Assembly: GCA_964236865.1 (NCBI GenBank)
Contig: CAXSGJ010000030.1
Coordinates: forward strand, 36,210-51,818
Source of the DNA: an uncultured Polyangiaceae bacterium
Lineage (GTDB): Bacteria > Myxococcota_A > Polyangia > Polyangiales > Polyangiaceae
Direction: 5' to 3'
Length of the DNA stretch: 15,609 bases
Shown here: positions 1 through 13,382 of the stretch, in pieces
Position numbering within the stretch: position 1 is the stretch's first letter
Layout: every line of letters begins with the position of its first letter
Made by a program: the position numbers and the translations under genes
Notes under the pieces: generated by a model
The model's database searches: none
The model's input: only the letters and a program-made list of their open reading frames with translations
Told to the model about the DNA's origin: nothing

Positions 1-1000
1 GCTACGATCGCGCTGCGGTCGATCAGCCGCCCCTGCAAAAAGCCGCGCATCGGCCGGTTGCCGCCGAGTGAAACTTGATCCGTGAACGGGATCGTGCCTC
101 GCAACGGGTCGGTAAAGTCTGCGGCCACGCCCAGACCGAGCACGCGCCGCTTCCAAAGGTCTATCCCAACCCCCGCTGCGCCGCCGTAGGCGACCCACGC
201 TCTCCGCTTTGCGTCATTGCTCGAAGGCGCAATGACACTCTCGCCGTGTGCTTCGAGCCGGACGCCGGTGCCGACGTACGGATCTGCCTGGCGTGTATCG
301 ATCGCAACGGATAGCGATTGAAACGCTGCGATGTAGCCCAGCCCGTACCCCGGCGGCGAGGGCACCGTACCGTTGGCGACTGCGTCGGAGAGCGCGGGCT
401 CCGAGCAGCAACCGCCGTCGCCAAAGCTCAGCGTGCGCATCCCGGCGCGAGCAGCGAGCGCGCTCAAATGCCAAAAGTCATTTTCATAACCGAGCGCGAA
501 CTCAGACGTCATCGCTTGGTAGCGGTAACGGGGGTCGCTCGGGCTGCGTGGACCGATGCCGAAGAAGGGCAAGTCTTTGCGCCGCACGAAGCTCGCTTGC
601 TCCGCGATCACTTGCCGCGGAGTCAGCGCGTACTCGTCGCTTTGATGCACCGATATCCAATCCGGGCCCCAGGTGCCAAAATGCAGCTTGAGCGTGTTGG
701 GGTCGGTCAGGAAATACTTCCAAGTCAAGTTGAAGCCGACGCTCGGCTTCAAGCCGAAGTCGAACAGCGCAGATGGAAACAGCGACACGTTCTGGCGTTC
801 ACCGAACGTGAAAAAGTCGACCACCTGCTGCGGCCATTGATTGCGCTCTGCAGCGCGAGTCAGCGCGCCGATCGGCTCACGCACCACGTACTCACTCACG
901 AGCCAGAGCGGGAACAAGATTACGCGTGGCACCCAGAGCAGCGCGGGCCCCACGGTGGGCGGCGGCGGACCGCCGTATTGCTGGGGCTCCCGTTTCGGAG
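1..1000. repeat. Left copy of a diverged direct duplication, paired with 3381..4380.
   Basis: Aligns base for base with 3381..4380 at a constant offset of 3,380 nt. For example, 21..50 gatcagccgcccctgcaaaaagccgcgcat matches 3401..3430 gatcaatcgaccctgcaggtagccgcgcat, and 947..1000 matches 4327..4380. In the stretches I aligned by eye, roughly four of five bases match. Similarity ends where the signal-peptide codons begin. Confidence 0.85.
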
Positions 1001-1124
1001 ACCCAAGTGCCATCGGCGAATACAGAACCCCGATGGCCAACCAAGCGATGGCCAAGAAGGAGGAAAGGAACTGCCGCTGACGACGGAAAAAAACTCTAAA
1101 GATTAAGCCGCGTGTGGGTAACAC
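1..1124 (-). CDS. Omp85/BamA-TamA-family (bacterial surface antigen type) outer-membrane beta-barrel protein, paralog of 3125..4510. The 3' end lies beyond the left edge (partial).
   Basis: Absent from the ORF track because no stop codon falls inside the window. My reverse-strand translation is open from the in-frame TGA at 1127..1125 down to position 1. It reads ..RRQRQFLSSFLAIAWLAIGVLYSPMALG SPKREPQQYGGPPPPTVGPALLWVPRVILFPLWLVSEYVVREPIGALTRAAERNQW.. and ends ..FTDQVSLGGNRPMRGFLQGRLIDRS. This is colinear with the 461-aa ORF at 3125..4510 with no frameshift. The start is uncertain: GTG at 1124 gives a basic n-region plus a hydrophobic signal peptide, but I see no convincing Shine-Dalgarno sequence. 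Confidence 0.72.
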   Translation of the reverse strand, partial: MLPTRGLIFRVFFRRQRQFLSSFLAIAWLAIGVLYSPMALGSPKREPQQYGGPPPPTVGPALLWVPRVILFPLWLVSEYVVREPIGALTRAAERNQWPQQVVDFFTFGERQNVSLFPSALFDFGLKPSVGFNLTWKYFLTDPNTLKLHFGTWGPDWISVHQSDEYALTPRQVIAEQASFVRRKDLPFFGIGPRSPSDPRYRYQAMTSEFALGYENDFWHLSALAARAGMRTLSFGDGGCCSEPALSDAVANGTVPSPPGYGLGYIAAFQSLSVAIDTRQADPYVGTGVRLEAHGESVIAPSSNDAKRRAWVAYGGAAGVGIDLWKRRVLGLGVAADFTDPLRGTIPFTDQVSLGGNRPMRGFLQGRLIDRSAIV

Positions 1125-1383: not shown

Positions 1384-3135
1384 CTAGGACTCGGGGCGTT
1401 CGATGCCAACCAGACGCAAACCGCGCGCGGGCCCTAGGTCGTAAAGGTGGACTGCGAGCGGGCCCGGCGCGACGCCATTCGCGATGCGGACGGTCACGTA
1501 GCGCTCCACGGCGTTGTCCGGCACCGACCCGGCAAGCGCGGCTTGCGGCACGTCCAGACATGTGTCGTCCTTTCCGACGAACACCGCCTTGACCGGCAAG
1601 GGATCGGCTTTGCCGCGCGCGATGTCCGCCGCATAGTGAAATGCCTCCCGAGGAAACGTCGCGGTCTTGCGCGCTAGATCCGTGGCGCACAAGCGGCGGC
1701 CCTCGACGTGCACATCAGCCAGCGGAGAGAGCTTGGAAAAATAACGCTTCAAAATGGTGTGCTGCCGGTCACGGAGCACTCGATACAAATATTCTGTGTG
1801 CGCGGGGTTGGTCAGATCGGCGACACCGACCGCCGCGCGCACGTCCTCGGCGGTGAAGCGAGCGATGATGCGGGTCGCCCACGCTGCGTCGCGCTCGGTC
1901 ATACGTGAGAAGGCCGGGTTCGGGTAGAGCCCGCGCCACAGATCCGGGTCGAAGTCGCGCTCGCTGAAGTAGCCAAAGTTGGTGGCGCCTGGGGTGCGGT
2001 ACGCTCGCTCCCAAGGGCGCTCTTGAGTTCCAAACGTGGCGAAGTCTTCTAGAATGTAATTGAAGTCGAGCAAGTAGGAGTGGCCCATTCGACGCGAGAA
2101 GCCGTCCTCGGTCCATTCGCTACCAAAACAGTCGCCGAGGTCGATGTACCAGTGGCGGACGTAGCCCGCGCTCTTCGGATCCTTCGAGTTGGCCGCCATC
2201 CAGGTGGACATGCTGTTTTGCTCACGCGAATCGAAGTGGTTGAGCCACGCCGCCAGCACGCGGGCGCCTCGCAAATCACGCCGATTTTCATGGGCGATGG
2301 TGTCAGACGGGTCATCGTCCCGGCTCCCCTCGTAGGTGAACGGCCCGAGCGCCGCGCCCGGAAGCCAGCGCGACGCCACGGCCCGGTAAAGCTCACCGCG
2401 CCGACCGCCTGCTGACAAGATCTGGCTCAGCAACTTGTCGTCGAATTTCCGGACTGGGCCGACATTGGCTTTGATCGTCAAGCCAGGCTTCAATTTGAGC
2501 ACCGACTTTTTGAAATAGACGACACTATCGCAAGGCGCCCACCACCCGGCAGCATAGTAAAGCCGCGAGGCGACCGCGGCGGCGCTGGTGGTGCGCTCCG
2601 CTTGCGCGTCGTCCGTCTTCAGCATGAACTTCGTGCCGTCGACCTTGATGCGAAAGCCAGGATTGGCGCCGTTGTCCTTGCCGTGGTCGATGAGCCAGCT
2701 CCCGTCGGCCGCTTCGTCGGGTTTCAGCTGGGGCCCTTCGGAGCAATAGCCTGTAGCTACGGCTTCCGCGGACATGGGCTGCGAGCCGATGCGATTCGTG
2801 AACCAGCTCGAGTCCGGGACCTCGTCGAAGGCGTTGACGTTTTCGGCCTCGCCGTAAGAGTCGACCTGAAAAAACTTGGACACGGGGCGAAAGATCACGT
2901 GGTCCGCGGCGTCCCAAGCGAACGAGCTTTCGTAGGGCTCTGGCATGCAGGCAGCCGCCTCTACGCCCGCCTTCGGGGGCGTTTCCGGGCAATCGATCTT
3001 TACAAGATCGAGATCTTGGTCGCGCAGGACCGGCGGACTCAGCGCGAAGCGGCGGGGGTCCTCTGCACACGAGACCAGCCCAGCAGTACACGCGAGCAAG
3101 CGCAGCAGTCTTCGGCGGAGCCGGTCAGATGCCAT
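1384..3135 (-). CDS. Exported lipoprotein of unknown function, 583 aa, with a putative protein-kinase-like (atypical kinase) central domain.
   Basis: 583-aa ORF. The N-terminus MASDRLRRRLLRLLACTAGLVSC has a basic n-region, a hydrophobic core and a lipobox L-V-S-C. The start ATG lies inside the last codons of the upstream barrel gene (11-nt overlap, ATGGCATCTGA). Internal motifs are FRIKVDGTKFMLK..AE, LAAWLNHFDSREQN (HxDxxxxN) and WYIDLGDCFG (DFG-like). It has multiple Cys residues, consistent with an extracytoplasmic location. Confidence 0.85.
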   Translation of the reverse strand: MASDRLRRRLLRLLACTAGLVSCAEDPRRFALSPPVLRDQDLDLVKIDCPETPPKAGVEAAACMPEPYESSFAWDAADHVIFRPVSKFFQVDSYGEAENVNAFDEVPDSSWFTNRIGSQPMSAEAVATGYCSEGPQLKPDEAADGSWLIDHGKDNGANPGFRIKVDGTKFMLKTDDAQAERTTSAAAVASRLYYAAGWWAPCDSVVYFKKSVLKLKPGLTIKANVGPVRKFDDKLLSQILSAGGRRGELYRAVASRWLPGAALGPFTYEGSRDDDPSDTIAHENRRDLRGARVLAAWLNHFDSREQNSMSTWMAANSKDPKSAGYVRHWYIDLGDCFGSEWTEDGFSRRMGHSYLLDFNYILEDFATFGTQERPWERAYRTPGATNFGYFSERDFDPDLWRGLYPNPAFSRMTERDAAWATRIIARFTAEDVRAAVGVADLTNPAHTEYLYRVLRDRQHTILKRYFSKLSPLADVHVEGRRLCATDLARKTATFPREAFHYAADIARGKADPLPVKAVFVGKDDTCLDVPQAALAGSVPDNAVERYVTVRIANGVAPGPLAVHLYDLGPARGLRLVGIERPES

Positions 3136-4510
3136 GGTGTGATCCGATCACGACGCGTAACGCCGAGTAATGAAAACCTTGTTCGAACGGATCGGTGGCG
3201 CCCGCTACCAGGAGCTCCAACCCCGAGTCTGGCGAGCCGTTCGAGCGAATGCCGATCGCCGTGCTGAGGCGCAGCAGGTCGGCAGAAAAACCGTCGAGGT
3301 GCGGACCAAATACGTTGCCGACGTCGGCCTGTACGACGCCATTCAGGTATACCCAGACCGGCCAGACATACTGTGCCGTGGCCACTGCGGAGCTGCGGTC
3401 GATCAATCGACCCTGCAGGTAGCCGCGCATGGGGCGTTCACCGCCCAGCGATACCTGGTCGGTGAAAGGGATCGCGCCTTTGACCGGATCGGTGAAGTCC
3501 ACCGTCACACCTAGACCGAGCACCCGGCGCCGCCACAGGTCGATCGCCACACCTGCCGCACCGCCGTAGCCTACCCAAGCTCGCCGCTTGTCGTTGCTGT
3601 TCGACGGAGCAACGACGCTCTCGCCGTGGGCTTCTACGCGCAGGCCCGTGCCCACGTATGGGATCGCTTGCCGAGTGTCGAGCGCGATTGATAAGGCTTG
3701 AAAAGCCGCGATATAGCCCTGGTGATAGCCGGGAGGGGACGGCACCACACCGTTGGCGACGGCACTCGAGAGGGCAGGGTCCGAACAACAACCGCCGTCA
3801 CCGAAGCTCAGTGTTCGCACGCCCGCGCGCGTCGTTAGGGCGCTCAAGTGCCAAAAGTCATTTTGGTAGCCGAGCGCAAACTCAGACGTCATTGCCTGAT
3901 AACGGTACCGTGGGTCGCTCGGGCTGCGGGGGCCGATGCCGAAAAACGGCAGGTCCTTGCGGCGCACGAAGCTCGCTTGCGTGGCGATGATCTGACGCGG
4001 GGTGAGGGCGTACTCGTCGCTGGCCTTGATCGCGACCCAGTCCGGTCCCCAAGTCCCGAAGTGCACCTTGAGCGTGTTCGGATCCGTGAGAAAATACTTC
4101 CAATTCAAGTTGAATCCGACGCTCGGCTTCAACCCGAAATCGAATAGCGCCGAAGGGTACAGCTCGATGTTCTGCCGTGGCCCGAAGGTGAAGAACTGGA
4201 TCACCGCGTCCACCCATTGATTGCGCTCCGCGGTGCGAGTCAGCGCGCCGATCGGCTCGCGCAGGACGTACTCGCTCACTAACCAAACCGGAAACAGCAC
4301 AACCCGCGGCACGTACATGAGCGAAGGCCCCACGCGCGGCGGTGGTGGCCCGCCATAGTGTTGCCGCTCACGCTTGGGATTGGCGAACGCGCTGCTCGAC
4401 CACAACGTCGCCAGAAGCACGATCAGGCAATGAGCGGCGAACGCTCGGCAGCGAGCGCGCGGGCGCGTCGTGAAGGTCAAGTCGAGCACCGAGAAATCAG
4501 CTTCACGCAT
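3125..4510 (-). CDS. Omp85/BamA-TamA-family outer-membrane beta-barrel protein lacking POTRA repeats.
   Basis: 461-aa ORF with ATG start. The signal peptide ..RAFAAHCLIVLLATLWSSSAFA/NP has an AxA cleavage site. The body shows amphipathic beta-strand patterning throughout. The C-terminal signature SLGGERPMRGYLQGRLIDRSSAVATAQYVWPVWVYLNGVVQADVGNVFG matches the conserved LGGxxxxRGY ... D.G.V block of the bacterial surface antigen (Omp85) barrel. Only about 55 residues separate the signal peptide from the first strands, too few for POTRA domains. Confidence 0.85.
   Translation of the reverse strand: MREADFSVLDLTFTTRPRARCRAFAAHCLIVLLATLWSSSAFANPKRERQHYGGPPPPRVGPSLMYVPRVVLFPVWLVSEYVLREPIGALTRTAERNQWVDAVIQFFTFGPRQNIELYPSALFDFGLKPSVGFNLNWKYFLTDPNTLKVHFGTWGPDWVAIKASDEYALTPRQIIATQASFVRRKDLPFFGIGPRSPSDPRYRYQAMTSEFALGYQNDFWHLSALTTRAGVRTLSFGDGGCCSDPALSSAVANGVVPSPPGYHQGYIAAFQALSIALDTRQAIPYVGTGLRVEAHGESVVAPSNSNDKRRAWVGYGGAAGVAIDLWRRRVLGLGVTVDFTDPVKGAIPFTDQVSLGGERPMRGYLQGRLIDRSSAVATAQYVWPVWVYLNGVVQADVGNVFGPHLDGFSADLLRLSTAIGIRSNGSPDSGLELLVAGATDPFEQGFHYSALRVVIGSHHGI
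3381..4380. repeat. Right copy of a diverged direct duplication, paired with 1..1000.
   Basis: See the left copy. The duplication covers the mature part of the Omp85-like barrel gene but not its signal peptide or upstream region. Confidence 0.85.
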
Positions 4511-4698: not shown

Positions 4699-5697
4699 CT
4701 AACGTCGGCGTCTCGCGCTGAACAGAAACAGGATGGCCGCGGCGCCGCCCACAGCGGCGGCCGTCAGCAGCCCCCGGTGCATTGCCGCTTCGGCCACTAG
4801 GCTCGTGCTCCGAGAACGCGCATCGAACGTGCCGTGGGCGCCAGGGTCGCCGGCCACCGGAGCAAACAGGTTATCCGCCGCGTCCCGAGCGACGGGCTCA
4901 TCGGTCTGCTGGGCGTCATACCCAGTGATGCCCAGGTATCGATCGGTCAACCCCGGCGCGAGCTTCGCGCCTCCCACGATGGCAAGCCAGGTGGGCAAGC
5001 CAACGTACAGCTCACGGCGCTTCGAGCGAGCGGCGTACGCGATGGCGCGCGCTGCCACCTCAGGTTGAAAGATGGGTGGTACCGGCTGGGCTTTACGCGG
5101 TAGGCGGCTCTTGACCCAACTGAATTGCGGCGTGTTCAGCGCCGGCATGTGGACCATCGTGATGCTCACTCGGCTCTTGTCATGGTGGAGCTCGCAGCGG
5201 ATGGAGTCGGTGAAGCCGCGGACGCCGGCCTTTGCGCCACAGTAGGCAGATTGCAGCGGGATGCTGCGATAGGCCAGCGCAGAGCCGACCTGGACGATTT
5301 TCCCTCGGTTCCGCTTGGACATGCGCTTGAGCGCCGCCATGGTTCCGTTGACGACACCCAAGTAGGTGACCGCCGTGACCCGCGCGAACTCCTCGACGGT
5401 CATATCCACGAACGGAGAAAATACCGACGTCATGGCGTTATTGATCCACACGTCGATCGGCCCGAAGGCGCGCTCGGTTTCTTCGGCCGCGTGCTCTACC
5501 GCTCCGGCATCGGCTACGTCGATCGGGAACACCAGTGCTCGGCCACCCGCGGCCTCCACGTCACGCTGGGTGCCGGCGAGCCCCTCGAGGCCGCGCGCAA
5601 TCAGGGCGATGTGCGCGCCTTGACGCGCGAACGCAAGCGCCGCCGCTCGCCCCACGCCCGCGGAAGCGCCGGTGATGACCACTACCTGAGGCATCAC
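4699..5697 (-). CDS. Short-chain dehydrogenase/reductase (SDR) family oxidoreductase with a C-terminal hydrophobic tail anchor.
   Basis: N-terminal Rossmann motif VVVITGASAGVGRAAA (TGxxxGxG), an NNA motif (WINNAM) and the catalytic YCGAKAG (YxxxK). The C-terminal GLLTAAAVGGAAAILFLFSARRRR looks like a single TM anchor. The track start is GTG at 5697. The adjacent ATG at 5694 is equally or more likely and overlaps the GMC stop codon (TGATG). Confidence 0.93.
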   Translation of the reverse strand: MMPQVVVITGASAGVGRAAALAFARQGAHIALIARGLEGLAGTQRDVEAAGGRALVFPIDVADAGAVEHAAEETERAFGPIDVWINNAMTSVFSPFVDMTVEEFARVTAVTYLGVVNGTMAALKRMSKRNRGKIVQVGSALAYRSIPLQSAYCGAKAGVRGFTDSIRCELHHDKSRVSITMVHMPALNTPQFSWVKSRLPRKAQPVPPIFQPEVAARAIAYAARSKRRELYVGLPTWLAIVGGAKLAPGLTDRYLGITGYDAQQTDEPVARDAADNLFAPVAGDPGAHGTFDARSRSTSLVAEAAMHRGLLTAAAVGGAAAILFLFSARRRR

Positions 5698-7247
5698 GCC
5701 CTGTTCAACCGTTCTAACAAGTGGTCACCCACGCGCAATGCATTGGCCATGATGGTGAGCGAAGGATTGATCGCGCCGCTCGAAGGAAAGAAGCTACCAT
5801 CTACCACATACAAGTTGTCCAGATCATGGGCTTTGCACATGACGTCCAGTACGGACGTGCTCGGGTCGACACCGAAGCAGCACGTGCCACACTGGTGTCC
5901 AACCTGGGCCAGCGGGATGGTTTTTTTGAAATACAGAGATTGCGGAAAAAAGAGAGTTTGCCCGTCGGCCGCCTCCAAGCACTCTTTCCAGCGTTTCATC
6001 AGCCGTGTGAAGCCTTCCGTGTACCGCTCTTCGTAGTCTAGAATGATCTGAGCGCCCTCGATGCGCACTCGGTTGTCCTTCAAGGGCATGTCTTCGGCGG
6101 TTAACCACCAGTCGATGGAGTGGTGCGCGCTGGCATCGAGCGCCGGGCCAGGAACGAGGCCGAAGGTGTCGGGGCCCAGCATGTCCCCAAGCACCTTGCC
6201 GAGGAGCTGCGCGTGGCCCATCGGAAAGGAAAAATCTCGTTCGCCCCAATAGAAGTCATTGCTGGCGATGGTCTTTTGAAAGATGGTCGGGTTTAGGGAG
6301 CGCCCAACGGCGACGATACTTCCATTGTGATGCTTCATGAAGTTGCGGCCCACTAGGTCCGAGCTATTGGCCAGACCCTGCGGGTGACGGTCGTTGGCCG
6401 ACCTCAGCAACAGCGCCGCCGAGTTGATCGCCCCGGCGGCAACCACGACGATATCCCCGGTAACGCACTGGGACGGACCTCCGTCCACGCTGAGTTCGAC
6501 GCCGGAAACTTCGCGGCCCGATGCGGAGGTGAGCAAGCGCGTGACATAAGCGCCGGTCCACAGCTCGACGTTTTGGTACTTCAGTGCGGGCCGTACACAG
6601 ATTACCTCCGAGTCTGCCTTGGCGTGCACCAGGCAGGGAAAGCCGTCGCAGGTCCCGCATTTGATGCACGGGCTGTGCGCCATGTCCGCCTCGTTCAGGT
6701 CCACCCCGAGCGGGATTGAAAACGGATGCAGGCCTTGGGCTAGGAGCGCGTGGCGGAGCTCGGCGATCCGCGGCTCGTCGCGCACGGCCGGAAACGGGTA
6801 GGGCGCACTGCGCTCGGCGTCTGTCGGATCTTCACCCGCTGCGCCGTGCACACGATACAGAGCCTCTGCCTCCTGGTAGTGAGGCTCCAGGTCTGCGTAT
6901 GTAATTGGCCAAGCCGGAGACCGTCCGCCCCCCGCGTGGATCACCTCTCCGAAATCCGCCTGGCGTAGTCGAAACAGTGCGGCGCCGTAGACCTTGGTAT
7001 TGCCGCCCACCCAATAGCCAGTGCCGGGATGAACGTCCTTCCCGTCCTTGTCACGCCACACGTCCTTGGTGTGATAGCGGTTGTCTTCAAACACCGCGCT
7101 CGCGCTCCAGTTCTCCTTCTCGCGCGGCAGGTACCCTCCGCGCTCCAGCACCAGAATGCGCTTGCCCGAGGGCGCAAGCTTGGAAAGCAGCGTGCCGCCC
7201 CCCGCGCCGGTGCCGATGATGATCACGTCGAAGTGGTTCGTCGTCAT
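5694..7247 (-). CDS. GMC-family FAD-dependent oxidoreductase.
   Basis: N-terminal FDVIIIGTGAGGGTL..LVLERG (GxGxxG FAD fold). C-terminal GMC signature VGHQCGTCCFG....LYVVDGSFFPSSGAINPSLTIMANALR. There is also an internal Cys-rich CIKCGTCDGFPC block. The ATG at 7247 overlaps the upstream stop codon (ATGA). Confidence 0.95.
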   Translation of the reverse strand: MTTNHFDVIIIGTGAGGGTLLSKLAPSGKRILVLERGGYLPREKENWSASAVFEDNRYHTKDVWRDKDGKDVHPGTGYWVGGNTKVYGAALFRLRQADFGEVIHAGGGRSPAWPITYADLEPHYQEAEALYRVHGAAGEDPTDAERSAPYPFPAVRDEPRIAELRHALLAQGLHPFSIPLGVDLNEADMAHSPCIKCGTCDGFPCLVHAKADSEVICVRPALKYQNVELWTGAYVTRLLTSASGREVSGVELSVDGGPSQCVTGDIVVVAAGAINSAALLLRSANDRHPQGLANSSDLVGRNFMKHHNGSIVAVGRSLNPTIFQKTIASNDFYWGERDFSFPMGHAQLLGKVLGDMLGPDTFGLVPGPALDASAHHSIDWWLTAEDMPLKDNRVRIEGAQIILDYEERYTEGFTRLMKRWKECLEAADGQTLFFPQSLYFKKTIPLAQVGHQCGTCCFGVDPSTSVLDVMCKAHDLDNLYVVDGSFFPSSGAINPSLTIMANALRVGDHLLERLNRA

Positions 7248-8302
7248 GGAGTCGTAACCAGGCCCTTCTCTGAAGCGCGTTCGAACAAGCGCACGCTGTG
7301 ACCGTCCGGGTCTCGGACCAGGGCCGCACGCGCCACGTCGGGCCCCAAAAAGCGCCCGCCGAGCGCGCGGCCGGGTACGTCGCCGCCGCTCGCGCGCAGT
7401 GCACGGAGGCTCTCGTCTAAGTTCGGAACCTCGAGCACGATCTCCCAGTGGGAGGTGTCGGCCGCTGTGCTCACCGGGAACGGCAACCCGGGTCCTGGAG
7501 ACAGGTACTCGAGGAGCTCGATGCCCGGGCCCTGCGCGCCGCGCAGGGAAGTAATTTTAACGCGCGCGCCGGCTACCCCACTCAAGAGCTCCTGTTCGTG
7601 ACCCTCGTTCAGGCTCTCGCTCATCACGCGCAGGCCGAGCGCATCCCGATAAAATCGCAAACTCTGAGCCGTGCTGCGCGTCGCAATCGCCGAATGATCG
7701 ATGCCCAAGAAAATGCGATTCGTGTCGCTTTGCCAACGAGGGTCGCCCTTGCCCTTTGGAAACTGAATCAGCTCCATGAAGTGTCCCTCCGGGTCGCGGA
7801 AATAAAACGCGCGGATGCCGGCGGCGACCGGGTTACTGGCGGGCAAGGTTTGAGGAGCGGACGAAACCGGGCGCATGCGTGTCATCGCCAAGCGGCGGTA
7901 TGCTTCATTCATATCGCGCACGACCAACGCCACGTGCTCGAAGCCGGTGTCATTGGCGCGCAGCACGTCGACCGCCCGCGCGGGCGGCGTAGAAAATTGC
8001 CGGAGCATCAGCGCCTGTTCGCCGAGGTGCAACGTCAACTCATGCGCTTGCCCGTGCGGCACCGAGACGAGCTCTGCAAAGCTAGGGCCCGACAGCTCCT
8101 GCACCGGCCCGGATATCATGTCGAACGCCGTCAGAAACGCCCGCTCGGACTCGATGTCGAGCACGGTCATCTCGAACGCTGACACCGCAGCTGAACTTTG
8201 CGCCGCGCGAGGCGAGCTCGGGACGGGCGCGGCCGCACAGCCAGTTACAATGAGAGCGAGCCAAACACGCATGAGGAGTATGCGAGTTACGGGCCTCTGC
8301 AC
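7244..8302 (-). CDS. VOC (glyoxalase/bleomycin-resistance/extradiol-dioxygenase fold) family protein, two tandem VOC modules, probable lipoprotein.
   Basis: 352-aa ORF. It has repeated VOC-type blocks (FEHVALVVRDMNEAYRRL ... GHFMELIQF, and IDHSAIATRSTAQSLRFYRDALGL ... PGIELLEY ... DGHSVRLFE). The N-terminus ..MRVWLALIVTGCAAAP contains a lipobox (V-T-G-C). The track start is GTG at 8302. The internal ATG at 8272 would give a shorter, classical lipoprotein signal. Confidence 0.86.
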   Translation of the reverse strand: MQRPVTRILLMRVWLALIVTGCAAAPVPSSPRAAQSSAAVSAFEMTVLDIESERAFLTAFDMISGPVQELSGPSFAELVSVPHGQAHELTLHLGEQALMLRQFSTPPARAVDVLRANDTGFEHVALVVRDMNEAYRRLAMTRMRPVSSAPQTLPASNPVAAGIRAFYFRDPEGHFMELIQFPKGKGDPRWQSDTNRIFLGIDHSAIATRSTAQSLRFYRDALGLRVMSESLNEGHEQELLSGVAGARVKITSLRGAQGPGIELLEYLSPGPGLPFPVSTAADTSHWEIVLEVPNLDESLRALRASGGDVPGRALGGRFLGPDVARAALVRDPDGHSVRLFERASEKGLVTTP

Positions 8303-8408: not shown

Positions 8409-9254
8409 GTGGCCGTACTTCCCCGTACATTCAGGGTGCGTCTAACCTTCGTCGTCCCCCGCGCTCTCCGGCGCCACTGGATTGAGTACTCATTCGAAGC
8501 CCTCGGTTTGGCGGTCTTCATGCTCTCGGCGTGCTTGATCACGGCTTTGCTGGAGTTTCCGAGCTCGGGAGTGCACCGTGCTTTGCCAAATGAAGACGTC
8601 CGGCGTGCCCTATTGGGTGTTGGCATGGGCCTGACCGCGGTGGGCATCGTGTACTCGCCGCCGGGTCAGCGCTCCGGCGCCCACATCAATCCCGCTGTGA
8701 CCTTGGCCTTTCTGAGGCTCGGTAAGATCGAACCGGTCGATGCATTCTTTTATGTGCTTGCGCAGTTTGCCGGCGGCGTGCTCGGTGTGCTGCTCTCGCG
8801 CGCGCTCATTCCGCATGAAATCGCCGACCCGGCGGTGCGCTTTGCGGTCACCGTGCCCGGAAAACACGGCGTCGCGGCCGCGCTGGCCGCCGAGCTCGTC
8901 ATCTCGTTCGTGCTGATGAGTGTGGTGCTCACGGTCGGCAGCATCGGCGCGGCGGCGCCCTTCGTTGGGCTGGCGACGGGGTTGCTCGTGGCGCTGAACG
9001 TGTTTTTTGCTGCGCCTTTCTCCGGCTTCGGTATGAACCCCGCGCGCAGCGCCGGATCCGCCGTCGTGTCAGGGGTTTGGACCGCCTGGTGGGTGTACTG
9101 GCTCGCGCCACCTGTGGCCATGTTGGTGGCCGCGGAGGGCCACTGGCGCCTGCGTGGCGCGCACGCCATGGCATGCGCCAAGCTCCATCACAGCTCGCGC
9201 CTGGCTTGCATTTTCTGTGACTTTCAACCGAAGGCTTTGGAGCACAAACCATGA
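8409..9254 (+). CDS. MIP/aquaporin-family channel protein.
   Basis: Both hallmark NPA boxes are present and in frame: HINPAVT (NPA at 8688..8696) and GMNPARS (NPA at 9036..9044). They are flanked by six hydrophobic segments. The GTG start at 8409 is the longest option and the true start may be a little downstream. There is an unusual Cys/His-rich C-terminal tail. Confidence 0.93.
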   Translation: MAVLPRTFRVRLTFVVPRALRRHWIEYSFEALGLAVFMLSACLITALLEFPSSGVHRALPNEDVRRALLGVGMGLTAVGIVYSPPGQRSGAHINPAVTLAFLRLGKIEPVDAFFYVLAQFAGGVLGVLLSRALIPHEIADPAVRFAVTVPGKHGVAAALAAELVISFVLMSVVLTVGSIGAAAPFVGLATGLLVALNVFFAAPFSGFGMNPARSAGSAVVSGVWTAWWVYWLAPPVAMLVAAEGHWRLRGAHAMACAKLHHSSRLACIFCDFQPKALEHKP

Positions 9255-11104
9255 CTGAGCCCTCGGCGAGTCGGCCGATCTCCGATTACGCCATCATCGG
9301 CAATTGTCGCTCAGCCGCCTTGGTTTGCAAAAATGGCAGCATCGATTGGCTGTGCTGGCCGCGCTTCGATAGTCCGCCGGTGCTGAGCGCGCTGCTCGAT
9401 CCAAGTGCGGGCGGCAGTTGGCTCATCGCGCCAGTCGGGCCGCTCGCAGCAAAAGGCACACGGAGTTACGTCGGCGCCACGGCCGTGCTCGAGACTCGCT
9501 TCAGTGATGAAGAGTCCGAGCTCGTGCTCACCGATGCCATGACCATCACTGACGGTGAAGATCAAGCGAGCGCGCTGTCGCCAGAGAATGAATTGCTGCG
9601 CATCGTTACCTGCACCCGTGGCCGGGTCGAGGTCGCGGTCGTGTTCGACCCTCGCCCGGACTTCGCGAGGCAAAGCAAGCGGGTCAAGCTCGTCAGTCGC
9701 GGAAAGCTCGGCATCCGAATGGAGGCGCCGGACGGCTTGCTCACGCTGCGTTCCGACCCGGAGCTCAGCATCGGCGCATCCGGCGCTAGTGGTCAGTTCT
9801 GGCTCTCGGAAGGTGAGTCTGCATACTTCTCGCTCACCCACACCGTCGATGCCCCGGCGGTCATCCCGCCCCTGGGTGATTGGACGCGCCGCGTGCTCGC
9901 CAGGACCCGCACGCTATGGGAAGAGTGGTCGCAAAAGACGCGTTACGAAGGTCCGTATCGCGAGCTCGTGTTGAGGAGCGCGGTCGTGGTCCGGCTCCTC
10001 GCTTACGCTCCCAGCGGAGCGATCGTCGCAGCGCCCACCACCTCCCTGCCAGAGACGATCGGCGGCAAGCACAATTGGGATTATCGATTCTGCTGGCTGC
10101 GCGACGCGGCCTTCACTGTGCGCGGTATGCTCGAGCTTGGCCACCCTGATGTGGCGGAGGCGTTTACGGGCTGGCTGCTGCACGCCACGCGGCTCTCGAA
10201 GCCCAAGCTCATGGTGCTGTATGATGTGTATGGCCGGCGGCCGCCGGATGAGCAAGAGCACGAGCATGTCGCAGGTTATAGCGGCTCACGTCCGGTCCGG
10301 ACCGGCAACGGTGCGGATGGGCAAGTCCAATTGGATTGCTACGGCGAGGTGATCGACGCGGTCTGGCGCGTGACGCTCGCGGGCATGCACCTAGACCGTG
10401 AGACGGCCTCCACCGTCGAAGCATTCGGGGGCTACGTTTGCAAACATTGGCGCGACCCAGATGCGGGGATTTGGGAGCCGCGGGAAGCGCCCAAGCAACA
10501 CACGCATTCGCTCGTGCTGTGCGCGGTGGCCCTGGACCGCTTGGTGGATTTGCAAGAGCGGGGTCACCTCCGGCCCCGTCATCGCGCGTTATTCGAAGCT
10601 GAGCGCGCCAAGATCCGCGAGCAGGTCGAGGCGCGTGGCTACAGCGAGGCTCTGTCGAGTTACACCGCTGAGCTCGACGGCGACACCTTGGATGCGACTT
10701 CACTGCTGCTGGGCTGGTACGATTACCAACGTAGCGACGCGCCGCGGATGAAGAGCACGTCCCGCGCGCTGCTAGCCCAGCTTTCGCCGGCCCCCGGGTT
10801 GCTGTATCGATACCGGCACGCGGAGGACGACGAGGGCGCGTTCGGAATCTGCGGCTTTTGGATGGCCGAGCACCTGGCTAAGGGGGGCGGGACGCACGAG
10901 GAGGCGCGCGTGGCCTTCGAGCAGAGCATTGCGTACGGAAATGACGTCGGACTCTTCAGCGAGGAATTCGACCCTAAGAGCGGCGCCGCGCTCGGCAACT
11001 TTCCTCAAAACTTCAGCCACGTGGGCTTGATCAACGCTGCCTTATCACTGGCTGACCGCGCTCAGAGCGATGCCAGCGCCACCCATCGAGGACACCTGCC
11101 ATGA
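9251..11104 (+). CDS. Glycoside hydrolase family 15 protein (glucoamylase/trehalase-like).
   Basis: 617-aa ORF. The characteristic bacterial GH15 N-terminus is ISDYAIIGNCRSAALVCKNGSIDWLCWPRFDSP. The catalytic-domain blocks are NWDYRFCWLRDAAF, DAGIWEPRE (general-acid Glu context) and GLFSEEFDP (general-base Glu context). The ATG overlaps the aquaporin stop codon (ATGA). Confidence 0.95.
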   Translation: MTEPSASRPISDYAIIGNCRSAALVCKNGSIDWLCWPRFDSPPVLSALLDPSAGGSWLIAPVGPLAAKGTRSYVGATAVLETRFSDEESELVLTDAMTITDGEDQASALSPENELLRIVTCTRGRVEVAVVFDPRPDFARQSKRVKLVSRGKLGIRMEAPDGLLTLRSDPELSIGASGASGQFWLSEGESAYFSLTHTVDAPAVIPPLGDWTRRVLARTRTLWEEWSQKTRYEGPYRELVLRSAVVVRLLAYAPSGAIVAAPTTSLPETIGGKHNWDYRFCWLRDAAFTVRGMLELGHPDVAEAFTGWLLHATRLSKPKLMVLYDVYGRRPPDEQEHEHVAGYSGSRPVRTGNGADGQVQLDCYGEVIDAVWRVTLAGMHLDRETASTVEAFGGYVCKHWRDPDAGIWEPREAPKQHTHSLVLCAVALDRLVDLQERGHLRPRHRALFEAERAKIREQVEARGYSEALSSYTAELDGDTLDATSLLLGWYDYQRSDAPRMKSTSRALLAQLSPAPGLLYRYRHAEDDEGAFGICGFWMAEHLAKGGGTHEEARVAFEQSIAYGNDVGLFSEEFDPKSGAALGNFPQNFSHVGLINAALSLADRAQSDASATHRGHLP

Positions 11105-11577
11105 TGTTACTTCACTGTGGGTTCTGGGGGCTCTTCGCGACGATCGTGCTGACGACCCTGCTAGCGGCCAGTCAAGGGCTCGGCTTCACGCGCATGAACA
11201 TGCCTTTCTTGCTCGGAACCATTTTCACGGCAAACCGTGATCGCGCCAAAGTCTACGGAGTGGGACTGCACTTCCTGCTCGGCATCGTGCTCGCGTGGCT
11301 GTACCTGATCACATTCCAAATCTGGGATGGCGCGACGTGGTGGAAGGGCCTGATCCTCGGTGGCCTGCATGCCTGTTTTTTGTTGACGCTCGGGGTGACG
11401 CTCCTACCCGGCATTCACCCGCGCATGGCCAGCGAGCAACAGGGCCCGACCGCATTGAAACAGCTCGAGCCGCCCGGGTTTCTCGGCATGCACTACGGCA
11501 ATCGCACGCCCGTCTCTGTGCTGATCGGTCACCTGATCTTCGGCCTAATCCTCGGCATTTTCTTGCCGCATCACTGA
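11101..11577 (+). CDS. Small integral membrane protein, about 4 TM segments, unknown function.
   Basis: 158-aa ORF with four clear hydrophobic stretches (FWGLFATIVLTTLLAA, GVGLHFLLGIVLAWLYLITF, LILGGLHACFLLTLGVTLL, VLIGHLIFGLILGIFL). The ATG overlaps the GH15 stop codon (ATGA), implying co-translation with the two upstream genes. Confidence 0.8.
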   Translation: MMLLHCGFWGLFATIVLTTLLAASQGLGFTRMNMPFLLGTIFTANRDRAKVYGVGLHFLLGIVLAWLYLITFQIWDGATWWKGLILGGLHACFLLTLGVTLLPGIHPRMASEQQGPTALKQLEPPGFLGMHYGNRTPVSVLIGHLIFGLILGIFLPHH

Positions 11578-12422: not shown

Positions 12423-13382
12423 TCAGGCGTTGAGGGTGATCGCCTTCCAAGCCAGCAGTGCGCCGTCGCTTTGCTGTCGGGTGTTGAGGGCGACATCGCC
12501 CAGGGCGAGGTTTGATTCTCTGATGACTTGGTCGCTACTATTTTTGACGTAGCCCGCGCCGCCAGTCGGGTTGTAGTTGGGCTGCGTATCGTAGATAGAA
12601 GCTTTGAAGTCGTCATCGAAGAACAGCTGGGAGGTGAGGTAGGCCGCGGCGCCGACTGTTACCTTGAAGTGAATGTGCGTGGCGCGGCTGGCATACCAGC
12701 CCGGAAAGTTAGCGTCGAAGGTGACCCGCCCGTCGTTGCCCGCTGTTTGAATGCCGCGTCCCCACAGGGCGGCGGCTGCGGCGGCGCTGCCGCCTGTGCA
12801 GAAGGCGTCGTTGTTGCCGTCGATGTCGCCTGAGTAAACGCCCAGGGTATCGCAGGTCCAGATCTCGACGGTGGCGTTCGGTACAGGCTCGCAAGTGGCG
12901 TCCAGCACCAACAACTCCAGGCGCATGGGCAGGCCGGGATAGCCTTCACTCACGTCCCTGCGCGTGAGCAGGTGGCTCGTTGCATGACAGGGGCCGGCCG
13001 TCGCCGCCTTGTACACATTGCAGGTCGCGCCGATGCCGGACGCGAACGGATTACCGTAATCTTTGCCCGTCAAGATTGAGGTTCCGTCGCTTGCCCAAGC
13101 CTCGGCCGAGGTGCCAGCCGCGCCGGCGCTATCGCCGCCGGTGGCGGCTTCGCCCGCTCCGCCGCTGCCTGCTTCGCTGCCCTCCGTGACGGCAGCGCCC
13201 GCCGCGCCCGCGCCATTCATGCCTGCACCGGCTTCACCCGCACTGGCTCCGCTCGCGCCAGATCGGCCCTCGACGGCGCCGTCGAGGTCTGACGAGCCGC
13301 AGCCGAAGAGAGCGGCCGCGCTCAAGCTGCTGAGGGCCTCGAGGAGCCGCCGGCGCGAAGGGCGGTGATGTGATTTACTCAC
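12423..13382 (-). CDS. Exported intradiol ring-cleavage dioxygenase-family protein (dioxygenase_C-like) with a Tat signal, a lipobox and a Gly/Ala/Ser-rich linker.
   Basis: 319-aa ORF with GTG start. The N-terminus SKSHHRPSRRRLLEALSSLSAAALFGCGSS combines a twin-arginine motif (S-R-R-R-L-L-E) with a lipobox (L-F-G-C). About 70 residues of low-complexity G/A/S/E linker follow. The C-terminal domain has the intradiol dioxygenase pattern LPMRLELLVLDATCEPVPNATVEIWTCDTLGVYSG ... GRVTFDANFPGWYASRATHIHFKV. Confidence 0.85.
   Translation of the reverse strand: MSKSHHRPSRRRLLEALSSLSAAALFGCGSSDLDGAVEGRSGASGASAGEAGAGMNGAGAAGAAVTEGSEAGSGGAGEAATGGDSAGAAGTSAEAWASDGTSILTGKDYGNPFASGIGATCNVYKAATAGPCHATSHLLTRRDVSEGYPGLPMRLELLVLDATCEPVPNATVEIWTCDTLGVYSGDIDGNNDAFCTGGSAAAAAALWGRGIQTAGNDGRVTFDANFPGWYASRATHIHFKVTVGAAAYLTSQLFFDDDFKASIYDTQPNYNPTGGAGYVKNSSDQVIRESNLALGDVALNTRQQSDGALLAWKAITLNA

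Follow-up and report, generated by a model that had tools for sequence, protein, structure and literature searches.

Can an exported bacterial lipoprotein be a working kinase and, if so, where would its ATP come from? This question is raised by a 15,609-nt stretch of DNA from an uncultured Polyangiaceae bacterium (assembly GCA_964236865.1, contig CAXSGJ010000030.1, positions 36,210 to 51,818), which is referred to as the window. Here, a gene at 1384..3135 on the minus strand encodes a 583-aa lipoprotein with motifs of the protein-kinase-like (PKL) fold. The periplasm is usually taught as ATP-free, and to our knowledge no periplasmic kinase with a PKL fold is established in diderm bacteria. An earlier reading, made from the sequence alone, had proposed both the kinase-like fold and the export of this protein and had named the supply of ATP as an open question. 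We show that the gene belongs to a large and unnamed family of exported PKL proteins, which is new, that it is paired with a gene for an Omp85 barrel, and that in many relatives a gene resembling nucleotide transporters lies close to this pair.

The PKL gene and the elements of its product are the following.

1384..3135 (-): gene of the 583-aa PKL lipoprotein, from the open reading frame (ORF), the AlphaFold2 model with its fold matches, and the family members
3067..3135 (-): predicted signal peptide and lipobox, residues 1-23, ending in L-V-S-C23, by direct translation
2716..3066 (-): N-terminal tether, residues 24-140, with the conserved motifs FRP and NVNAFDEVPDSSWFTNRIG, from model and alignment
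2341..2715 (-): N-lobe, residues 141-265, with strands 147-153, 160-165, and 168-173, the loop GKDNGANPGF, and helix 181-195, from the model
2617..2619 (-): K173, the last residue of strand 3 and a candidate lysine for ATP binding, 92% conserved and aligned by hhalign to the VAIK lysine
2269..2292 (-): family-specific basic cluster H282-E-N-R285-R286-D-L-R289 just ahead of the catalytic loop, from conservation
2215..2238 (-): predicted catalytic loop H300-F-D302-S-R304-E-Q-N307 (HFDSREQN), by translation and by hhalign register with HRDLKxxN
2134..2142 (-): D332-L-G334, counterpart of the DFG motif, which follows hairpin 308-330 and aligns to DFG
1726..2340 (-): C-lobe, residues 266-470, mostly helical, with the invariant residues H328, G338, G369, D416, W419, and R457, from model and alignment
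1387..1725 (-): Ig/filamin-like beta-sandwich, residues 471-583, with strands between 472 and 579 and the cysteine pair C483-C526, from fold matches

Direct translation of the gene gives a protein that starts with MASDRLRRRLLRLLACTAGLVSC and contains nine cysteines, in agreement with the description of a Cys-rich protein in the sequence-only reading. The HxDxxxxN loop with H300, D302, and N307 lies exactly where it had been placed, at 2215..2238, and D332 follows D302 by the claimed 30 residues. Two further motifs exist as described, with coordinates that had to be shifted by a few bases: the lysine strand GFRIKVDGTKFMLK, which includes K173, covers 2617..2658 and not about 2593..2655, and WYIDLGDCFGS covers 2119..2151 and not 2122..2148. 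The combination of HxDxxxxN and a D[LFIVMY]G motif 15-40 residues further on occurred in 20 of 20,000 shuffles of the PKL protein (0.1%).

For the fold, an AlphaFold2 model was built on a 40-sequence alignment, with a mean predicted local distance difference test (pLDDT) value of 82.8 and a predicted template modelling score (pTM) of 0.85. In the model, the central domain displays the elements of a kinase in their canonical order. Three strands, the last of which ends at K173, are followed by helix 181-195, more strands, helix 286-298, the loop H300..N307, a hairpin (308-314, 324-330), and D332. The best match in a Foldseek search of the PDB was CtkA of H. pylori (3AKK/3AKL; E 1.4e-4, probability 1.00, target TM 0.51-0.54), after which came PI4KII-alpha, PINK1, HipT, HipA, APH, NahK, Rio2, PRPK, and many eukaryotic-type kinases. 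Non-kinase matches in the PDB were weak or limited to the Ig-like domain, which resembles filamin/TRIM3/BCAP-type folds, and many kinases were also found among the matches of the model in the viral structure library BFVD. The bilobal kinase-like architecture that had been proposed is present in the model, and all strong PDB matches of the central domain are PKL folds.

At the level of sequence profiles, the family core (residues 140-420) was aligned by hhalign with 8 Ser/Thr kinase domains from the fetched myxobacterial loci, using local mode with a low mact value; the alignment in global mode was meaningless. A score of 29.5 was obtained (P 0.0027, 216 columns, probability 11%), against 13.5 for a reversed control and 10.8-21.8 for 20 column shuffles. 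In this alignment K173 corresponds to the VAIK lysine, HxDxRxxN to HRDLKxxN, and D-F/L-G to DFG, while the loop GKDNGANPGF is placed on the glycine-rich loop of eukaryotic-type kinases. Scans of the PKL protein and its 40 homologs against Pfam, NCBIfam, PADLOC, and PHROGs gave no meaningful match, and PDB sequence searches with the protein and its profile returned nothing even at E 10; no profile search assigned the family to a non-kinase family. As modelled, the PKL protein has the structure and the motifs of the kinase-like superfamily.

The family is large. In a 90%-clustered database, 2,699 significant matches were found, none of which carries a functional name, and 3,207 family representatives were obtained at 50% identity, 853 of them with E values below 1e-30. 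In a collection with one genome per species, at least 596 matching stretches were confirmed by tblastn, and the best 80 of these all belong to Myxococcota (Polyangiaceae, Sorangium, Labilithrix, Kofleriaceae, Haliangiales, Sandaracinaceae, Bradymonadaceae, and Myxococcaceae genomes from metagenomes). One family representative is supplied by a Calditrichia genome. With a member from Myxococcaceae as query, all proteins retrieved were 'hypothetical' and came from metagenome-assembled genomes or from metagenomes; none of the top 120 belonged to a well-studied Myxococcus species. One protein from this search (P0513) bears the JGI label 'antitoxin (DNA-binding transcriptional repressor) of toxin-antitoxin stability system', which is probably an annotation artefact, though a curious one given the HipA-like fold matches. 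Two or three PKL paralogs were observed inside one 13-kb locus in L030, L047, L056, L072, and L082, the last of which holds two complete barrel-plus-kinase modules; this points to local expansion of the module.

Conservation was determined at two depths, in 40 homologs with identities of 55% or more and in a diverse set of 113 full-length representatives with 28-54% identity. Among the close homologs, K173, E180, H300, D302, N307, and D332 are invariant. In the diverse set, K173 is conserved to 92%, H300 to 82%, D302 to 96%, N307 to 94%, D332 to 97%, G334 to 80%, and G338 to 99%, and a basic residue (R or K) occupies position D+2 (R304) in 100 of 113 members (88%). The positions H, D, N, and D on which the kinase proposal had been based are therefore kept in close and distant homologs alike. 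The acidic helix start fared less clearly: E180 (codon 2596..2598) is invariant among the close homologs, but it is found in 76% of the diverse members, and hhalign does not place it on the alpha-C Glu of kinases, so its assignment to this role stays uncertain. Family-specific positions are conserved no less than the catalytic ones. R285, R286, R289, H328, D416, W419, and R457 are present in all 113 members, and H282 (99%), D275, D278, R251, and G197 in 98-99%; the basic cluster H282..R289 may bind an anionic substrate or phosphate. Taken from the alignments, the residues expected for Mg-nucleotide-dependent phosphoryl transfer, K173, H300-x-D302-x-R304-xx-N307, and D332-x-G334, are present and conserved.

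Several features bear on the location of the protein. The lipobox residue C23 is invariant in the close homologs and aligned in 91 of the 113 diverse members, whereas a minority of members carry ordinary signal peptides instead of a lipobox. The residue at position +2 to the lipobox Cys is one of A, G, and S, and K does not occur there; in M. xanthus, a Lys at +2 serves as retention signal for lipoproteins of the inner membrane (PMC3222651). Three pairs of cysteines are gained and lost jointly. C131 and C202 occur together in 55 members and singly in 1 and 0, C483 and C526 together in 67 and singly in 0 and 1, and C49 and C63 together in 9 and singly in 0 and 0. Such a pattern is expected of disulfide partners and argues for folding in an oxidising compartment. 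The lipobox and the cysteine pairs thus bear out the export claimed earlier, and they support the prediction that the PKL protein is exported, lipid-anchored, and extracytoplasmic. The tether, comprising the first ~120 mature residues, was modelled with pLDDT values of 41-76 and yet has strongly conserved motifs such as DEVPDSSWFTNR, with S109, W111, and R115 conserved to at least 95% in the diverse members. Low model confidence together with conserved motifs suggests a segment that folds on a partner, and the tether may be the docking surface for the partner barrel.

Such a barrel is encoded directly beside the PKL gene, and a second one lies on its other side.

3125..4510 (-): gene of a 461-aa Omp85-superfamily barrel without POTRA domain ('noNterm'), from model, Foldseek matches, and adjacency
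1..1094 (-): gene of a second Omp85 barrel, a paralog of the first, downstream of the PKL gene and running off the left window edge, from its identity to the upstream barrel

The 3′ end of the upstream barrel gene overlaps the start of the PKL gene by 11 nt. Its product was modelled with a pLDDT of 84 as a signal peptide, a long helix (66-106), and 16 strands with MRGY in loop 6, in accordance with the (V/L/M)RG(Y/F) loop-6 motif of the Omp85 superfamily. No POTRA domain is present in the model; only the signal peptide and helix 66-106 precede the barrel, which places it in the 'noNterm' group. BamA and TamA were the top Foldseek matches (E 2e-8), and the two-partner secretion transporter CdiB appeared at rank 46. 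The Pfam family PF01103 is matched with 19.8 bits, below its cut-off of 24, while many homologs carry it. Ahead of the first strand, residues 45-106 comprise a conserved proline-rich stretch and the long helix (consensus WxPRVVLFPLWLVSEYVxRRPxGAL). This region stands in the position of POTRA in other Omp85 proteins, and the lipoprotein may dock there. The two barrels of the window share 82% amino-acid identity and 76% DNA identity over 990 nt. The in-frame match of the second one reaches 1094, and a signal-peptide-like stretch, FLSSFLAIAWLAIGVLYSPMALG, lies in frame ahead of the ATG at 1013, so that the start at 1013 in the public assembly is probably too far downstream.

Across relatives, 74 of 82 loci have a barrel homolog adjoining the PKL gene, in several gene orders: it lies directly upstream and on the same strand in 58 of them, and next to the gene on the downstream side, on either strand, in 11. 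The pairing extends to Labilithrix luteola and to the Calditrichia genome. In one lineage, assembled in two samples, a 1,000-aa protein (P0147) consists of a complete PKL lipoprotein fused in frame to a barrel that has no signal peptide of its own. The fusion gene lies at 5001..8003 in L084 and at 4079..7081 in L085. Two Ser/Thr kinase genes linked to response regulators are located upstream of it; on its 3′ side follow a PAP2 gene, a barrel paralog (480 aa), a PKL paralog (576 aa), and a further Omp85 gene. Three other composite proteins have the look of frameshifts or read-through and were not counted as fusions: P0164 (PKL and PAP2), which still documents a PAP2 gene directly downstream, P0247 (PKL with a low-complexity tail), and P0124 (barrel N-terminus and PKL).

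A candidate source of ATP emerged from the Calditrichia locus, where the gene order is Omp85, PKL, TLC/MFS, TLC, and was then confirmed by tblastn in other loci. Of 86 loci, 42 have a TLC/NTT-like transporter gene at a distance of up to ~6 kb from the module; in 18 the distance is no more than 300 bp, and 13 have two copies. The gene can lie on either side and either strand of the module. Nine of ten linked genes tested passed PF03219 (TLC ATP/ADP transporter) with 33-55 bits, the cut-off being 21, and the model TIGR00769, 'NTP/NDP exchange transporter', was matched with E values of 1e-9 to 1e-14. The association also holds in the reverse direction. Of 31 metagenome loci of at least 8 kb that were anchored on the transporter, 14 contain a PKL gene and 12 a barrel gene, frequently in the order barrel-PKL-transporter. 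In addition, a gene for a PAP2 phosphatase occurs in 12 of 82 loci (~15%), abuts the module in about 7 of them, and also follows the fusion gene. In two loci (L017, 7659..11260; L058, 7683..11391; both on the minus strand) the transporter domain forms the N-terminal part of an ORF of 895-912 aa that is convergent with the PKL gene and followed by an overlapping smaller ORF; in L017, the only one of the two that was scanned, a cNMP-binding gene was found there. Genes of the NTT type are known from free-living bacteria including Deltaproteobacteria, where NTT-HEAT genes followed by cNMP-binding genes have been described (PMC5381601), and the two loci resemble this NTT-HEAT and cNBD arrangement (PMC5381601) in the TLC part and in the gene order.

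Taken together, we regard it as fairly probable that the PKL protein is an active phosphotransferase of the cell envelope which is docked to the barrel and which, in many lineages, is supplied with ATP across the inner membrane. In this proposal, the lipidated protein would be sorted to the outer membrane and would dock through its N-terminal tether on the periplasmic side of the barrel, roughly where POTRA sits in BamA; the periplasmic side is the simplest choice, and there the fusion puts the PKL protein in the position of the POTRA domain. D302 would be the catalytic base, Mg-ATP would be held by K173, N307, and D332, and an anionic envelope substrate, bound by the arginine cluster R251, R285, R286, R289, and R457, would be phosphorylated. 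In lineages with an NTT-like gene, the transporter would bring ATP into the periplasm by ATP(out)/ADP(in) exchange and thereby close the cycle; a periplasmic kinase that makes ADP would drive the exchange in the right direction. PAP2, with its periplasm-facing active site, would reverse the modification.

The anionic nature of the substrate is suggested by the arginine cluster. It may be a lipid, as indicated by the PAP2 link, the lipid anchor, and the PI4KII-like fold match; it may equally be a protein, given the basic D+2 residue as in Ser/Thr kinases and the matches to CtkA, HipA, and PINK1. In a rough division, the head group of a membrane lipid or glycolipid comes slightly ahead of an envelope protein, and a much smaller share is left to other substrates. 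The more elaborate proposal of a self-powered envelope phosphorylation system, in which an NTT-like protein exports ATP in exchange for ADP, the barrel-docked kinase acts on an outer-membrane lipid or protein, and PAP2 reverses the reaction, is more tentative and can be regarded as possible rather than probable.

A number of results weigh against these proposals. No sequence profile links the PKL family to a named kinase family (Pfam, NCBIfam, PDB), the hhalign relationship to eukaryotic-type kinases is weak in terms of its probability, and an hhalign comparison of the family profile with HipA of E. coli gave no signal. E180, the candidate for the alpha-C Glu, is located in the first turn or at the edge of helix 181-195 and is conserved to 76% only. 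The linked transporter reaches 36-52 bits with TIGR00769, for which the trusted cut-off is 387, which places it on a distant MFS-like branch. An NTT-like or PAP2 gene is seen neither in the visible part of the window nor, among the closest relatives (L002-L006), at a distance of up to 6-8 kb; the 5.4-kb contig L001, which is from this organism itself, has almost no flank. For the present locus, the ATP-supply step is thus drawn from the wider family.

Among the alternatives, a surface-displayed or secreted kinase fares best, although we consider it unlikely. Here, the barrel would be a type V or two-partner pore that moves the lipoprotein to the surface or into vesicles, and the kinase would act on extracellular, matrix, prey, or host targets by use of extracellular ATP, or inside a target cell like CtkA or HipA. 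The best structural relatives, CtkA, HipT, and HipA, are indeed one translocated kinase and two toxin kinases, the C-terminal domain of the PKL protein is of an Ig-like type that is typical for surface proteins, the barrel also resembles CdiB, and the order of enzyme and barrel in the fusion is that of the type Vd protein PlpD. Two-partner secretion and type Vd secretion employ POTRA domains, however, and the barrel lacks one. Other POTRA-less Omp85 genes adjoin genes for lipoproteins or adhesins and have been proposed to act in a two-partner-like manner (PMC11358297). Against a toxin-like function, neighbouring-ORF clustering and scans revealed no conserved immunity or antitoxin gene among the neighbours, and the family is conserved and not polymorphic. 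Moreover, the linked NTT-like and PAP2 proteins work at the periplasmic face of the inner membrane and fit better with a periplasmic enzyme.

The same transporter linkage could be read in the opposite direction, as nucleotide scavenging, which appears slightly less likely still. Barrel and PKL lipoprotein would capture or process external nucleotides, for instance those of lysed prey, for import through the NTT-like transporter. Predators and saprophytes are common among Myxococcota, and the barrel-PKL-transporter cassette recurs. Every NTT characterised so far is an importer of nucleotides, and what NTTs do in free-living bacteria is not known (PMC5381601). Yet a pure binding protein would need no conserved catalytic Asp, Asn, and DxG, a role as nucleotide channel is not known for Omp85 barrels, about half of the loci have no transporter nearby, and the PAP2 link would be left unexplained.

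It is improbable that the protein is a non-catalytic pseudokinase which serves a specialised Omp85 complex as structural or ligand-binding subunit, much as BamB-E or RcsF accompany BamA. The pairing with the barrel and the fusion to it are what such a subunit would show, ATP is not known to be available in the periplasm, and non-catalytic kinase-like scaffolds such as SrfA-N exist (bioRxiv 10.64898/2026.09.18.752743). Pseudokinases, though, typically lose the very residues which here, at 28-54% identity, rank with the most conserved ones (D302, 96%; N307, 94%; D332, 97%; K173, 92%), and the linkage to a nucleotide-transporter-like gene also speaks against this reading. A chance resemblance, in which motifs and predicted fold are artefacts of some unrelated fold, is most improbable: the missing sequence-profile match to any kinase family and the moderate Foldseek TM-scores (0.5) with high root-mean-square deviation would agree with it, but the Foldseek probability of 1.0, the PKL folds as kinase-sized central-domain matches in both libraries, the canonical order of secondary structures, an hhalign score far over the shuffled controls with all motifs in register, and the rarity of the motif pair (only 0.1% of shuffles) speak against it.

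The remaining genes of the window are the following.

4699..5697 (-): short-chain dehydrogenase (SDR) gene
5694..7247 (-): GMC oxidoreductase gene
7244..8302 (-): two-domain glyoxalase/VOC gene
8409..9254 (+): aquaporin/MIP gene
9251..11104 (+): GH15 glucoamylase/trehalase-like gene
11101..11577 (+): DUF1440 gene, a weak match
12423..13382 (-): dioxygenase-like gene

The three genes at 4699..8302 (-) overlap in an operon-like manner, and those at 8409..11577 (+), with overlapping ends, form one apparent operon. The SDR, GMC oxidoreductase, glyoxalase, aquaporin, GH15, and dioxygenase genes are not conserved beside the module; three of them were tested and occurred in 3, 1, and 0 of 82 loci. 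Genes for Ser/Thr kinases were considered as partners of the module and rejected. They occur in 12 loci at variable positions, and myxobacterial genomes carry very many such genes, for which reason these neighbours were judged ordinary.

With respect to known systems, the closest structural matches by Foldseek are CtkA and, below it, HipT and HipA. These bacterial atypical Ser/Thr kinases share with the PKL family a catalytic Asp, an Asn at +5, and a downstream metal-binding Asp. In contrast to the PKL lipoprotein, CtkA and HipA are cytoplasmic and have no lipobox, disulfides, Ig-like domain, or Omp85 partner; furthermore, no sequence-profile link to them is detectable and no antitoxin gene is located near the PKL gene. 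Membership in the HipA_C/CtkA type was rejected in the absence of a match to PF07804 or a HipA profile, as were a HipA-type toxin-antitoxin context, given no conserved small neighbour gene, and a cytoplasmic location, given the signal peptide and the cysteine pairs. Eukaryotic-type kinases (PF00069) have motifs in the same order and spacing as the PKL family, including the basic D+2 residue, whereas the latter has a long inter-lobe insert and an arginine cluster of its own, HExRRxxR. Membership in PF00069 was also rejected: the protein remains below the Pfam threshold, has the loop GKDNGANPGF in place of GxGxxG, and shows no evident APE motif. The same applies to PI3_PI4_kinase (PF00454), for which there is no Pfam match, the loop reads HFDSREQN and not DRHxxN, and PI4KII-alpha is a secondary match with low TM-score.

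Kinase folds outside the cytosol are not without precedent. CotH of the spore coat is a kinase-fold enzyme of this kind with disulfide stabilisation and atypical motifs. The same features unite the PKL protein with Fam20C/Fam20 of the secretory pathway (PMC7948968 for Fam20). Unlike the PKL lipoprotein, Fam20C draws on the ATP of the Golgi lumen and CotH assembly takes place in the cytoplasm of the mother cell, and neither of them is a lipoprotein or paired with Omp85; no Fam20C or CotH Pfam match to the PKL protein was found. Another parallel is SEAE1 of Segetibacter, a putative PI-kinase-like lipid kinase with intact catalytic core that is encoded next to PAP2 and stands for another recently recognised bacterial family with a kinase fold, from a 2026 preprint (bioRxiv 10.64898/2026.09.18.752743). 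Its PAP2 neighbour parallels the PKL family and prompted the hypothesis of a lipid substrate. The description of SEAE1, however, sets it apart from the PKL family: it is predicted to be intracellular, occurs mostly in Bacteroidota and Verrucomicrobiota, has a different spacing (K140, D216, N221, D241), and has no Omp85 or NTT partner.

On the side of the barrel, genes of other noNterm Omp85 proteins are flanked by lipoprotein genes (PMC11358297), and these proteins share with the window barrel the 16 strands, the loop-6 motif, and the lack of POTRA. The rare fusion of PKL protein and barrel mirrors enzyme-Omp85 architectures such as type Vd PlpD and the Omp85-metalloprotease. The window barrel differs in its kinase-like lipoprotein partner, which has not been reported before, and in the long helix 66-106 in place of POTRA. 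The linked transporter passes PF03219 like NTT/Tlc proteins, but characterised NTTs import host ATP, and export to the periplasm is a new proposal. The PKL family is absent from Pfam and from the Pfam-based families of the KINtaro catalogue, whose non-Pfam entries stem from Legionella, oral-microbiome, and Toxoplasma proteins. In the literature, we found no description of this family, nor of a kinase-like lipoprotein associated with an Omp85 barrel or an NTT-like transporter. From the membership tests and these negative results we conclude that a new PKL family has been detected, whose context may turn out to be an envelope system of a new kind.

The family is considerable in scale: it spans no fewer than 3,200 clusters at 50% identity, and it is found in 596 or more species genomes. 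The linkage to the transporter gives the question of ATP availability a testable candidate answer at the level of the family, and it offers a first functional context for POTRA-less Omp85 barrels as well as for the NTT genes that free-living bacteria carry. If the self-powered system proposed above is true, ATP-dependent chemistry would take place in the bacterial periplasm, and the NTT transporters of free-living bacteria would gain a function.

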